Part shown: positions 60,349 to 64,000 of the stretch, piece by piece
Numbering within the stretch: the stretch's first letter is position 1
Layout: each line of letters opens with the position of its first letter
NCBI GenBank assembly: GCA_964392315.1
Contig: CAYMOT010000001.1
Span: 9,042 to 73,041 of the forward strand
Direction of reading: 5' to 3'
DNA length: 64,000 bases
Source of the DNA: an uncultured Candidatus Saccharibacteria bacterium
GTDB lineage: Bacteria > Patescibacteriota > 4484-211 > JAGQKX01
Notes under the pieces: model-generated
Database searches by the model: none
Told to the model about the DNA's origin: nothing
Seen by the model: only the letters and a program-made list of their open reading frames with translations
Position numbers and translations under genes: made by a program

Positions 60349-60460
60349 GTGCTGGCGACGACCTATTTTCGCACAAAAGCACTATCGTCGGCGCTGAGGG
60401 ACTTAACGATTCTGTTCGGTATGGTAAGAAGTGTACCCCCCTCGCTAAAATCACCAGCAC
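60349..60460 (-). rRNA. rrf: 5S ribosomal RNA
   Basis: The reverse complement reads GTGCTGGTGATTTTAGCGAGGGGGGTACACTTCTTACCATACCGAACAGAATCGTTAAGTCCCTCAGCGCCGACGATAGTG...TCGCCAGCAC. This carries conserved 5S motifs (CCAUACCGAACA, GUUAAG, CAGCGCCGA.GAUAGUG) and pairing termini. Confidence 0.8.
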
Positions 60461-61020
60461 AAAAGGCTCAATGAGACTCTGAAAACACAAGTCTGCGACG
60501 AAGTGTTTTCAGCCAGTCGAATTAGTCCTGCCGAAGCCCAAGGGCGAAGGCGGACTCAATGAACACATTCAATCAGCGTACCGATTTGAACCCTAACAAC
60601 TGGATATGTTTAATAGAAATATAAATACTTAACGGCCTATTAGTACGGCTCGGCTCGCAATCCAATCATCAAGTCGATTTGTGAAACGATCTATATCAGT
60701 CCGAAGACATCAATTTCACATTTTACATTTCTCATTTCAAATCAGACCACTACACACATTACTATGCTTACACCTGCCGCCTATCAACGTGGTAATCTCC
60801 CACGGACCTTGGTTTTCTTGAGGTTGGCTTCACGCTTATATGCTTTCAGCGTTTATCCAGACCAAACGTAGCTACTGAGCAATGCCTTCTAGACAACTCA
60901 TACACTAGAGGTTTGTCCACTCCGGTCCTCTCGTACTAGGAGTAGCCCCTCTCAAACCGTTCACGCTCACACCAGATAGAGACCGACCTGTCTTACGACG
61001 GTCTGAACCCAACTCGCGTA

Positions 61021-61052
<32 letters not shown>

Positions 61053-61191
61053 AACCTTCTCCAGCTCCAGGATGCGATGGGTCGACATCGAGGTGCCGAA
61101 CTGCGCCGTCAATATGGACTATTGGGCGCAACCAGCCTGTTATCCCCAGGGTAACTTTTATCCGATAATCTCTGGTGCTACCAAACGCGAA

Positions 61192-61290
61192 CTCGTGCAA
61201 AGCACGAGAAAACGAAGTGCATCGTTATGATTACAGAACATTTCTACAAAAATGGTGCTTTTTCTTCGTTCCCTTGTGCTTCGCACAAGT
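61192..61290 (-). other. intervening sequence / expansion in 23S domain V (near E. coli position ~2400), bounded by hairpins CTTGTGCGAAGCACAAG and CTCGTGCTTTGCACGAG (rRNA sense)
   Basis: Where E. coli has ~41 nt (GGUGGUUCUGAAUGGAAGGGCCAUCGCUCAAC) this gene has ~150 nt. The terminal hairpins are near-identical to those of the helix-45 insertion. Confidence 0.5.
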
Positions 61291-62389
61291 TATACCAGAG
61301 GGTCACTAGGTCCGACTTTCGTCTCTGCTCGACTTGTGAGTCTCACAGTTAAGCCAGCTTGTGCCCTTACACTAAAAGCTCGATTTCCAATCCGAGCTTA
61401 GCTGACCTTTGAGCGCCTGCGTTACTTTTTAGCAGGTAACCGCCCCAGTCAAACTACCCGCCAGACACTGTCTTCCTCCGAGCTTCATCGGTAGGAGTTA
61501 GTCGACGTAACCACAGAGGTGGGTGTTTCATTGGCGACTCCACGCAGGCTAGCGCCTGCGCTTCATAGTCTCCCCACTACACTACACAAAGTGTTCACGG
61601 CAACAATATCAAGCTATAGTAAAGCTCCATGGGGTCTTCTTGTCCCGGTGTGAGTAATCCGCATCTTCGCGGATATTGCAATTTCGCTGAGTCCCCCCTT
61701 GAGGACAGTGTCCAATTCGTTACGCCTTTCGTGCACGTCGGAACTTACCCGACAAGGAATTACGCTACCTTAGCACAGTCAGAGTTACTGCGGCCATTCA
61801 CCGGGGCTTCGGTCACAAGCTCGACCCGACAAGCGGATCTTACAAGCTTCGTTAACCTTCCGGCATTGGGCAGGCGTCAGCCTCTATACGTCCTATTACT
61901 AGTTAGCAGAGGCCTGTGTTTTTGCTAAACAGTCGCTTGGACTTCTCGTGTGTCCCCCACAGTATAAATACAGCAGGGCTACCTTTTCCCAAAGTTACGG
62001 TAGTAATTTGCCTAGTTCCCTAAGGAGGGTTCTCTCAATCACCTTGGAATGCTCATCCAGTCTACCAGTGTCGGTTTGCGGTACGGTTCCCATATGCAAT
62101 TAATCACAAACTTTTCTAGCTCCGACGCAATGTCGGATGTCATTTGTGGGTACACATATAGAAGTCACGGAATATTAACCGTGTGTCCATCGACTACCCC
62201 CGCGTTGGCAGGGCTTGCCTTAGGACCGACTAACCCTTAGCGGATCTACCGTGCTAAGGAATCCTGAGACTTTCGGTGTCCATCAATCTCGGATGGATTT
62301 ACGCTACTCATGTCGGCATTCTCACTTCCAATCGCTCCAGCCTTGCTCACGCTTGACCTTCGACGCAATTGGAACGCTCTTCTACCAAC

Positions 62390-62496
62390 CTCGCGCACAG
62401 CACGAGAATAATAAATATTCAAATAGACTAATAAACTAATTATTAATTTGTCTATTAGATTATTCGTCAATTTATACATTCTTGTGCTACGCACAA
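62390..62496 (-). other. AT-rich intervening sequence replacing the tip of 23S helix 45 (E. coli ~1164-1185), bounded by hairpins CTTGTGCGTAGCACAAG and CTCGTGCTGTGCGCGAG (rRNA sense)
   Basis: The flanks GCACCGAAGCAGCGAAAT and GTTGGTAGAAGAGCGTTC match the conserved sequence around helix 45, with ~108 nt of AT-rich inserted sequence between them. Confidence 0.55.
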
Positions 62497-62572
62497 GATT
62501 TCGCTGCTTCGGTGCTTAGCTTGAGCCCCGTTATATTTTCGGCGCAAAGGCACCAAGTAGACCAGTGAGCTG

Positions 62573-62622
<50 letters not shown>

Positions 62623-63215
62623 AAAGTGACTTCACTTCCTTTCCCACTTAGCTAGGACTTAGGGACCTTAGCATGCGATCTGGGTTGTTTCCCTTTTGAA
62701 AATGGAGATTAGCCCCCACTTTCTAACTTGCCTTGTATGTCAGTACGGTATTCGGAGTTTGGTACGATGGAGCCGCCAAAGGCAACTACACCGAATCAGT
62801 ATCTCTACCCCCGTACGACTAAACCAAGACGCTCGTCTTAAAACGATTTCGAAGAGAACCAGCTATTACCGGGTTCGATTGGCGTTTCACCGCTATCCAC
62901 AACTCATCCGAAGATTTTGCATCATCAACCGGTTCGGGCCTCCAGCCGACTTTCGTCGAACCTTCACCCTGGCCATGGATAGATCACCCGGTTTCGGGTA
63001 TACCGATAGCCGCTGAGGCCCTATTTGGACCCTGCCTGCGCAGGCAGGCATTCGCTTTCGCTGCGCCTCCAGGATAATACTCCCTTAGACTATGCGACTA
63101 CCGAGTAACTCGCCGACTTATGCTCCAAAAGACACGCCGTAGCTCATGCAGTAAACTGCACAAGCGTCGACTGCTTGTAGACAACCAGTTTCAGGTACTA
63201 TTTCACTCCCCTCCC

Positions 63216-63262
<47 letters not shown>

Positions 63263-63902
63263 GAGAAAGTATTTAGCCTTAGGAGTTGGTCCTCCCAGAT
63301 TCCCACAGGATTTCACGTGTCCCGCGGTACTCAGGATACCTTCTAGCTATGTACTCAATTTCGTGTACGGGACTTTCACCCTCTGTGGTTCAGCTTTCCA
63401 GACTGCTTCCACTATCAAGTACATACCATAATGAAGGTCCTACAACCCTCCAATAAATTGGAGTTTGGGCTTCTCCCCTTTCGCTCACCGCTACTCAGGG
63501 AATTATTTCTTTTCCTCGGCTTACTGAGATGATTCACTTCAGCCGGTTCCCTCCCATTAGCTAATACACTCTTCAAAAGAAGAATGCTTTCACTAATGAG
63601 CATCTGATGATGAAATCAGATAGGTTTCCCCATTCGGACATCCCCGGATTAACGGTCGTGTGACACCTACCCGAGGCTTATCGCAGCCTTCCACGTCCTT
63701 CATAGGCTTTCTCCGCCAAGGCATCCACCGGTTGCCGTAGCGAGTATTTGCATTCCATTAAACATAATCCAGTTGTTAAAGTTCAATGAAGGTGTATCAC
63801 CATTCATTTCACTGCCCAAAGTGACCGATCGTTTGTTACAAGAAGATGTCGGTCGCTTTTTTGGCTGGATGAGTGTTAACGCTCATCCAAGTTTGTATAT
63901 TC

Positions 63903-63957
63903 AAACAAGCAAATACCAAACATTTGTATATTTGTTATTTGTTTATTTGCATATTTT
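63903..63957. promoter_or_regulatory. AT-rich TTTG-phased element upstream of the 23S rRNA (rRNA sense: AATATGCAAATAAACAAATAACAAATATACAAATGTTTGGTATTTGCTTGTTTG)
   Basis: It shares the ATAAACAAATA / CAAATATACAAAT / TATTTGCTT blocks with the sites upstream of secE, rplJ and tRNA-Pro. Confidence 0.35.
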
Positions 63958-64000
63958 CTGTACCCGTTCTTGCCAGAGCAAGAATCTATTCAGAATCTCA

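Follow-up and report, generated by a model that had tools for sequence, protein, structure and literature searches.

Analysis of a 64,000-nt stretch of DNA (contig CAYMOT010000001.1 of assembly GCA_964392315.1, positions 9,042 to 73,041; hereafter the window) revealed that its 23S rRNA gene carries two insertions, IVS-A and IVS-B (IVS, intervening sequence), which belong to one family of short rod-like elements found across the candidate phyla radiation (CPR). The defining feature of the family is a 17-bp basal stem, in which a 5′ module CUUGUGC-NNN-GCACAAG faces a 3′ module CUCGYGC-N'N'N'-GCRCGAG, followed by a variable paired apical hairpin. The rod is a selected RNA structure. We propose, with a probability of roughly 0.6 and judging from sequence, that this CPR-wide family without open reading frames (ORFs) consists of excision cassettes, which would be removed from the pre-rRNA by a dimeric double-strand RNase, with RNase III as the obvious candidate.

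The window 23S is a full-length bacterial large subunit (LSU) rRNA with 69% identity to the E. coli 23S in a global alignment, and that alignment contains only two large insertions, of 92 nt after E. coli position 1167 and of 104 nt after position 2400. Helix names are our own assignment from E. coli coordinates (helix 45 tip, 1164-1185; helix 88 loop, 2395-2421). The gene, the two insertions and their terminal modules are as follows.

60722..63746, minus strand: 23S rRNA gene hosting both insertions (Rfam RF02541, 2340 bits, model positions 1-2925)
62390..62497, minus strand: IVS-A, a 108-nt rod in place of the helix 45 tip, after E. coli 1167 (E. coli alignment and minimum free energy (MFE) fold)
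62481..62497, minus strand: IVS-A 5′ module, CUUGUGC-GUA-GCACAAG (direct reading, exact pattern match)
62390..62406, minus strand: IVS-A 3′ module, CUCGUGC-UGU-GCGCGAG, of which 16 of 17 positions pair with the 5′ module (standard or G·U)
61192..61289, minus strand: IVS-B, a 98-nt rod after E. coli 2400, 4 nt into the terminal loop of helix 88 (E. coli alignment and MFE fold)
61273..61289, minus strand: IVS-B 5′ module, CUUGUGC-GAA-GCACAAG (direct reading, pattern match)
61192..61208, minus strand: IVS-B 3′ module, CUCGUGC-UUU-GCACGAG (direct reading, pattern match)

An earlier note on this DNA had described two insertions with shared ends in one 23S gene, one at the tip of helix 45, a classic IVS site, and the other near E. 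coli position 2400, with interiors that differ. Alignment and direct reading match this description exactly: the segment at helix 45 is a 108-nt insertion relative to E. coli, and the second is a 98-nt insertion in the helix 88 loop, where the host stem CUCUGGU/ACCAGAG and the 3′ part of the loop remain intact. In rRNA sense both insertions start with CUUGUGCG(U/A)AGCACAAG and finish with CUCGUGCU(G/U)UGC(G/A)CGAG. IVS-A (62497..62390) starts with CTTGTGCGTAGCACAAG and finishes with TTCTCGTGCTGTGCGCGAG, and IVS-B (61289..61192) starts with CTTGTGCGAAGCACAAG and finishes with TTCTCGTGCTTTGCACGAG; the full layouts are CUUGUGCGUAGCACAAG, a 74-nt interior and CUCGUGCUGUGCGCGAG for IVS-A, and CUUGUGCGAAGCACAAG, a 64-nt interior and CUCGUGCUUUGCACGAG for IVS-B. 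Both copies fit the family pattern with no substitution, with 16 of the 17 stem positions paired.

The two module pairs are 94% and 89% identical between IVS-A and IVS-B in a repeat search, and a pattern search found the modules confined to these four places within the window. With up to three mismatches allowed, 0.44 and 0.09 matches were expected by chance, and the observed counts were reached by no shuffle. The interiors share 53% identity, which is the background level and bears out the earlier claim that they differ; the two window copies are therefore ruled out as recent duplicates of each other.

Folding found a single rod for each insertion, with −41.6 kcal/mol and z = −7.9 for IVS-A, and −38.7 kcal/mol and z = −5.7 for IVS-B. 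In both, the 5′ and 3′ modules pair over 14 bp, followed by one A×C mismatch and then by further pairs. The earlier note had seen hairpins at both ends of each insertion, with the ends complementary to each other. The complementarity and the long stem were borne out; the two terminal hairpins were not, since the modules pair with each other as the two strands of one 17-bp stem, whose central triplets covary, and each insertion is thus one rod. MFE rods had z from −5.7 to −8.7. Across the family, the rod was the MFE fold in 63 of 65 elements, and the alternative fold, with each module closed on itself, was less stable than the rod by a median of 7.4 kcal/mol.

To find other members of the family, one genome per bacterial or archaeal species was scanned for CTTGYGC-NNN-GCRCAAG, a gap of 50-80 nt and CTYGYGC-NNN-GCRCRAG. 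The scan yielded 46 loci, of which 33 had the asymmetric pair CUUGUGC (5′) and CUCGYGC (3′). All 33 lay in rRNA operons, as placed by BLAST and local alignment, with 31 inside 16S or 23S genes and two in adjacent spacers (L049 and L053). A relaxed search of the same loci, with up to two substitutions per module and gaps of 10-320 nt, to which metagenome contigs and one close relative were added, raised the number of distinct elements to 65; they come from 35 genomes or contig groups, of which nearly all are CPR. The same module pair was thus recovered across the CPR when relatives were searched for further copies, a search the earlier note had suggested. Element length ranged from 52 to 221 nt (median 109), and the interiors (18-187 nt) were free in both sequence and length. 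The elements occupy 13 positions in 16S, 23S and spacers:

23S helix 45: 15 copies
23S helix 25: 13 copies
23S around E. coli 270-290: 10 copies
23S helix 98: 5 copies
23S helix 63: 5 copies
23S helix 68: 4 copies
23S helix 88: 4 copies
16S helix 6: 3 copies
23S-5S spacer: 2 copies
16S helix 17: 1 copy
23S helix 96: 1 copy
23S at about E. coli 1110: 1 copy
23S 5′ leader: 1 copy

The helix 88 site of IVS-B is also occupied in L066, L059/L063 and L060/L064/L065; the latter two groups came from a metagenome scan for the 3′ module together with the conserved GGAUAAAAG downstream of helix 88, and their copies sit at the identical position in the loop. Copies in the transcribed spacers were found close to the mature rRNA ends:

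L059 2573-2775 and L049 162-271: spacer cassettes 0-10 nt after the 23S 3′ end, before 5S
L053 3087-3190: spacer cassette 22 nt before the 23S 5′ end
L055 1232-1335: variant spacer cassette 18 nt after the 16S 3′ end

Carriers are named in their records as Saccharibacteria, Levybacteria, Roizmanbacteria, Wolfebacteria, Colwellbacteria, Blackburnbacteria, Microgenomates, Parcubacteria, WWE3 or 'Patescibacteria group'. A few records bear other labels, namely Gammaproteobacteria (L019, L039, L044, L045 and L047), Rhodobacterales (L011) and Nitrospirae (L049). Apart from L045, which has only a 16S and fell outside the comparison, their 23S genes are closest to those of CPR loci (up to 90% identity to Levybacteria and 80% to Roizmanbacteria) and only 69-75% identical to that of E. 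coli, so these records look misnamed or misbinned. Thirteen non-CPR loci were set aside (L022, L026, L027, L029, L030, L031, L035-L038, L043, L051 and L056). Most of them look like direct repeats of longer units with a similar palindrome, and L030 and L037 are isolated single matches. Among them, tandem or interspersed repeats of about 90-110 nt with CTTG(Y)GC-NNN-GC(R)CAAG occur at L027 2027-2523 (Stenotrophomonas maltophilia), in L029 and L038 (Clostridia), in L036 (Gallionella), and in L043 and L056; repeats of this type are probably unrelated to the rod family.

To examine covariation, 61 elements were aligned in register, with 500 shuffles and slid registers as controls. The rod model paired 89.5% of the cells against 72.5% in shuffles, and 241 cells were changed on both sides where 77 were expected. 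The covariation score was 0.454 against 0.129 in shuffles; none of the 500 shuffles reached 0.454 and slid registers came nowhere near it. The three positions of the central triplet, which were free in the search pattern, were paired in 60, 58 and 61 of the 61 elements, and each position showed between four and six kinds of pair; about the first five pairs on the interior side of the modules covaried too. The centre pair was U·G in 40 of the 61, and G·U pairs were frequent and strand-specific. Since U·G is tolerated only on the rRNA-sense strand, this is a signature of selection on that strand. The idea that the triplets serve as an address code, always distinct within a genome, found weak support, as all triplets were distinct in 11 of 18 multi-copy genomes, and it was dropped.

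In many interiors, 7-10 nt units are repeated in the 5′ arm (e.g. ACGACCAACGAC... and AAUUUUCAAUUUUCA...) and complementary units, often with G·U pairs, occupy the 3′ arm; examples are L046 4997-5106, L015 5626-5731, L025 7184-7290 and L055 3623-3720. This suggests that interiors grow by slippage with pairing kept.

The interiors also record how the copies are related. Pairs with at least 70% identical interiors were distributed as follows:

Same genome, different sites: 43.5% of 46 pairs
Different genomes, same site: 1.5% of 263 pairs
Different genomes, different sites: 1.2% of 1771 pairs

Interiors are 100% identical between the helix 45 and helix 88 copies of L060 and between the E. coli 270 site and helix 45 in L048. 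In Wolfebacteria MGIR01, 16S helix 6 matches 23S helix 45, and 16S helix 17 matches 23S helix 63, at 99% each, and the 16S and 23S copies of the Saccharibacteria metagenome-assembled genome CAZICC01 are 93% identical. Kinship therefore follows the genome and not the site, which points to duplication or gene conversion between rRNA positions. The earlier note had taken the shared ends to suggest a small mobile or duplicated IVS. Duplication of one kind of element between rRNA positions was upheld by the 13 positions in 35 genomes or contig groups; for the window genome itself no sign of recent copying was found, as its two interiors are unrelated to each other. Nor does any other collected element have an interior closely related to those of the window copies.

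The only close relative with a full 23S, L066 (GCA_964597265.1; 83% 23S identity to the window), carries rods at helix 45 and helix 88 as the window does, and two more at about E. coli 1110 and at helix 63. All four have one interior type in common, and the arms of the helix 88 copy are degenerate yet symmetric. Because rods at helix 45 and helix 88 are present in both genomes, they are inherited in this lineage. Occupancy is otherwise patchy: four copies in L066 stand against two in the window, the helix 88 copy is missing from L046 (WWE3) and the helix 45 copy from L034 and L021, and there are CPR 23S genes with no insertion at the helix 45 or helix 88 site.

Under the excision reading, the rod would form after transcription, a nuclease would cut within the basal stem, and the rod would be discarded. 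The rRNA pieces would stay unligated, and the ribosome would contain the window 23S in three parts, measuring about 1.25, 1.10 and 0.47 kb, with each break capped by the half of the stem that is kept. In other lineages, a cassette beside a mature 16S or 23S end would simply be one of the usual sites of spacer processing. In the DNA itself, copies are duplicated or homogenised between the rRNA positions of one genome. The covarying rod, the confinement of the family to rRNA operons, the patchy occupancy among relatives, the copying within genomes and the literature on IVSs and CPR insertions are counted in favour of this reading, as are two further features. Firstly, a two-fold symmetric stem, whose strands each read alike 5′ to 3′, with conserved arms around a free complementary triplet is the layout expected for a homodimeric double-strand endonuclease cutting near the dyad. 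Secondly, some cassettes lie in spacers, which are removed by definition, and the rods can be read as excision cassettes on that ground.

Several observations weigh against this reading. The arms hardly vary. In the 5′ module, U3, U5, A13 and A15 are present in 60 of the 61 elements; in the 3′ module, C3 is found in 58, G15 in 59, C5 in 45 and G13 in 53. These invariant arms result in two U·G pairs in the basal half of the stem. In the apical half, 57 of the 61 elements keep an A×C mismatch at position 15 and 44 keep one at position 13, although one transition could repair each. Each 17-mer is moreover a perfect 7-3-7 palindrome by itself, with 99.6% of cells paired. The kept mismatches and the palindromy of single modules indicate an extra constraint, which may act on DNA: DNA-hairpin recognition or quasi-palindrome correction in replication could be responsible, instead of RNA processing or in addition to it. 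A processing stem of the ordinary leader/trailer kind in the same operon provides an internal comparison:

63743..63786, minus strand: 23S leader arm, an inverted repeat of 44 nt, 73% complementary, without a module
60586..60629, minus strand: 23S trailer arm of the same stem (inverted repeat)

As this stem has no module, generic RNase III processing here needs no such sequence, and RNase III by itself does not account for how little the arms vary. A six-frame search found no RNase III signature motif, which is uninformative since only small parts of the genomes were covered. Most of the occupied sites (helices 25, 45, 63 and 98, and 16S helix 6) are variable or expansion-prone in other organisms, so that retention of the rods as expansion segments is sterically conceivable. 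Short insertions of 50-170 nt that lack the canonical modules occur in these CPR 23S genes too (the helix 45 region of L018; the helix 25 region and a site after E. coli 230 in L048; a site after E. coli 654 in L055), which implies at least one further kind of short insertion, or strongly diverged copies.

The palindromic arms suit a mobile element acting at the DNA level, a reading that is compatible with excision and that we consider possible but less likely than not. The terminal palindromes would then be sites for a DNA enzyme, either a Y1 transposase, as in the REP/REPIN-RAYT system, or a dimeric nuclease or recombinase of another kind; the arms would be conserved on account of this enzyme, and RNA excision, if any, would be a secondary tolerance. 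Besides the perfect palindromy of each 17-mer, positions 5 and 13 of the 3′ module covary internally (CG in 45, UG in 8, UA in 7 and AU in 1, and never C with A), and rare arm variants alter all four symmetric positions jointly, with the YGC-NNN-GCR core kept in all. These variants are GUCC/GGAC in L019, L023, L040 and L059, and in a solo 17-mer of L046; U1/A17 in the helix 88 copy of L066; CCGAUGC/CCGCUGC in L048; and CCAGCGC/CUAACGC in L055. Near-identical copies at unrelated sites of one genome, 16S and 23S included, are also as expected of a mobile element, and two inverted palindromes within one long hairpin are the architecture of REPINs.

Other findings speak against a DNA element. No copy outside rRNA operons was found in the rest of the window or in the non-rRNA flanks of the collected loci. 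No conserved target motif was seen (<0.5 bit per flanking position), nor, in 61 copies, any target duplication of at least 3 nt. The collected loci contained no long, ORF-bearing version, and 2.9 million viral contigs gave no match. The U·G centre pair and the strand-specific G·U pairs indicate selection in the rRNA sense. A miniature inverted-repeat transposable element (MITE), for which the inverted-repeat ends might speak, was rejected on the lack of such duplications in the 61 copies and of copies outside rRNA operons in the window and locus flanks. A covariance model with truncated interior performed poorly on long interiors, scoring IVS-A as single modules, and was used only to check for further copies in the window, of which it found none.

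Single 17-nt modules without a partner were seen inside 23S at L011 3222-3238, L023 7343-7359 and L046 4541-4557 (CTTGTGCTTTGCACAAG, CTCGCCCGGAGGGCGAG and CTCGTCCATTGGACGAG, respectively). Two of the three are near E. coli 1110, a site at which L066 bears a complete rod. Such single modules may have been left behind when an interior was lost, or new rods may start from them.

RNA and DNA constraints might also be joined in one element. We put forward tentatively, as a doubtful proposal, a portable processing cassette restricted to rRNA operons: a twin-palindrome rod able to fold either into one long stem or into a hairpin at each end. Its near-invariant YGC-NNN-GCR core and conserved A×C mismatches would be recognised, in a sequence-specific manner, by a dimeric enzyme distinct from generic RNase III. 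The substrate of this enzyme would be RNA, from which it would excise the rod, or single-stranded DNA, which it would use to copy the rod between helix tips of 16S, 23S and spacers; the free central triplet would help the 5′ module find its own 3′ partner. If true, mobile RNA-processing elements of a new class would exist, and ribosomes would become fragmented in a way not described before.

Retention of the rods in mature rRNA as expansion segments, with the stem as a protein-binding or folding element, is in our judgement improbable. The variability of most occupied positions in other organisms would fit it, as would the fact that the window and L066 alike retain rods at helix 45 and helix 88. 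It is opposed by the cassettes in transcribed spacers beside mature 16S and 23S ends, where nothing stays, by occupancy that is patchy even between relatives, and by interiors that are unconstrained at 18-187 nt. Published comparisons with CPR transcripts point to removal as well: Brown et al. 2015, as cited in a later article, reported that CPR rRNA insertions are absent from transcripts (PMC9297842).

Excision followed by religation, by an RNA ligase or by self-splicing, would leave the 23S unbroken. True introns are abundant in CPR rRNA genes (PMC11270868), and the kept half-stems would place the two ends side by side. This reading is nevertheless very improbable. Rfam at the gathering threshold gave nothing for IVS-A or IVS-B, and for IVS-A (62380-62510) no family matched even at E up to 10, group I, group II and small-ribozyme models included; a group I or II intron was accordingly rejected, there being no ribozyme core by these searches. 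The elements are plain rods down to 52 nt with no bulge-helix-bulge geometry, and classical IVSs of like shape are not religated (PMC11270868). Finally, coincidence or a purely local duplication in one gene, which the unrelated interiors of the window copies might suggest, is refuted, since dozens of independent assemblies carry these 34 nucleotides at the ends of their insertions and the chance expectation in the window is below 0.5.

Among the known systems closest to the rods are classical 23S IVSs. The IVSs at helices 25 and 45 of Salmonella, Yersinia, Leptospira, Campylobacter and Coxiella likewise replace a helix tip, have paired ends and are patchy, and IVS-A occupies the classic helix 45 site. 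The rods differ from them in sharing a near-invariant 17-bp quasi-palindromic stem at 13 positions, which include 16S, spacers and 23S helices 63, 68, 88, 96 and 98, in spanning many CPR lineages and in being homogenised within genomes. To our knowledge, the enterobacterial IVSs at helix 25 and helix 45 have no common ends. RNase III is known to excise classical 23S IVSs and to leave the rRNA ends unjoined, and these IVSs are suspected of horizontal spread; short non-intron insertions at the helix 25 and helix 45 sites of CPR have been called 'probably the same type' (PMC11270868).

Those short insertions were surveyed by Tsurumaki et al. 2024, who counted insertions of at least 100 bp, classed them by intron models and ORFs, and found that CPR insertions below 200-250 bp, neither intron nor ORF-bearing, lie mainly at 23IS2 and 23IS4 and are dominant in Saccharibacteria (PMC11270868). 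The rods are almost certainly the same objects as these uncharacterised short insertions. With that cut-off of 100 bp, IVS-B at 98 nt would be missed. A text search of PMC11270868 and its supplement gave no match for a shared stem, a palindrome or similarity of copies within a genome. Searches of the literature on CPR rRNA fragmentation, palindromic IVSs and Patescibacteria RNase III found nothing relevant beyond PMC11270868 and PMC9297842, and the motif letters themselves retrieved primer lists only. In the literature searched we thus found no description of the shared quasi-palindromic stem, of its use at 13 positions or of the copying within genomes.

CPR group I and group II introns with homing endonucleases occur in the same hosts and genes, are patchy and spread horizontally (PMC11270868), whereas the rods have no ORF and no ribozyme fold, measure 52-221 nt and sit at helix tips instead of the conserved core. 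The second internal transcribed spacer of eukaryotes (ITS2), the insect 28S gap and Euglena rRNA resemble the proposed excision in that a segment of a variable region is removed without religation and the rRNA works in pieces; they belong to another domain of life, involve other enzymes and have no shared portable stem. REPINs, reportedly described by Bertels and Rainey in 2011 as two inverted palindromes forming one long hairpin, are non-autonomous multi-copy elements with inverted palindromic modules around a short spacer in a single hairpin of about 100 nt. They are intergenic, with tens to hundreds of copies and a conserved flanking tetranucleotide, whereas the rods are found in rRNA operons only, at one to four copies per rRNA gene, and have no conserved flank; no RAYT gene was identified, the genome fragments covered having allowed no search for one.

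The CPR make up a large share of bacterial diversity and have rRNA genes unusually rich in insertions, of which the introns have been studied and the short ones merely counted. With the shared near-invariant stem, the short insertions can be defined and searched for, and their processing site can be put to the test; the stem also offers a handle on rRNA maturation in organisms for which few biogenesis factors are known. The excision reading predicts that 16S and 23S are present in several pieces in many CPR ribosomes, and copying between helix tips of one operon bears on the origin of rRNA expansion and fragmentation. In practice, rods break rRNA assemblies and change the length of amplicons, and binning or probe design that relies on rRNA can be misled by them.

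Contigs of the window species from nine independent read-archive assemblies (L002-L010, with an identical S1 protein) all break 140-760 nt upstream of the S1 gene. The breaks (window positions about 60420-61040) fall inside 5S or the 23S 3′ end, short of the insertions, and the contigs of relatives P0002, P0003 and P0009 likewise end before them. The breaks are probably due to graph branching in conserved rRNA. Since assemblies break within rRNA, public assemblies seldom show these insertions.

The remainder of the operon was also annotated. No module was found in the window 23S-5S spacer by regular expression or covariance model, and the 254 nt upstream of the 23S (63747-64000, to the window end) contain neither a 16S gene nor a tRNA; in L066, a tRNA lies about 380 nt upstream of the 23S. 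The 5S gene follows downstream of the 23S:

60350..60458, minus strand: 5S rRNA (Rfam RF00001, 67.9 bits)

It is short, with 109 nt on a 120-position model, and so fits the class of short 5S rRNAs that has been reported in CPR (PMC9297842). The S1 protein gene that adjoins it encodes four domains, and the best matches to the protein among named organisms belong to candidate division WWE3 (65% and 59% identity). The gene order 23S-5S-S1-radA-TRAM protein-rho is common to the window and WWE3-like contigs, and the remaining window has the appearance of a small fermentative genome of CPR type. By these sequence comparisons the window organism is WWE3-like. Domain III of its 23S is reduced by about 115 nt (window positions about 62100-62185, minus strand; E. 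coli 1400-1570): the stretch measures 55 nt in the window, against 171 nt in E. coli and 173-258 nt in six other CPR 23S genes. As L066 aligns there without a gap, the reduction is apparently a trait of the WWE3-like lineage.

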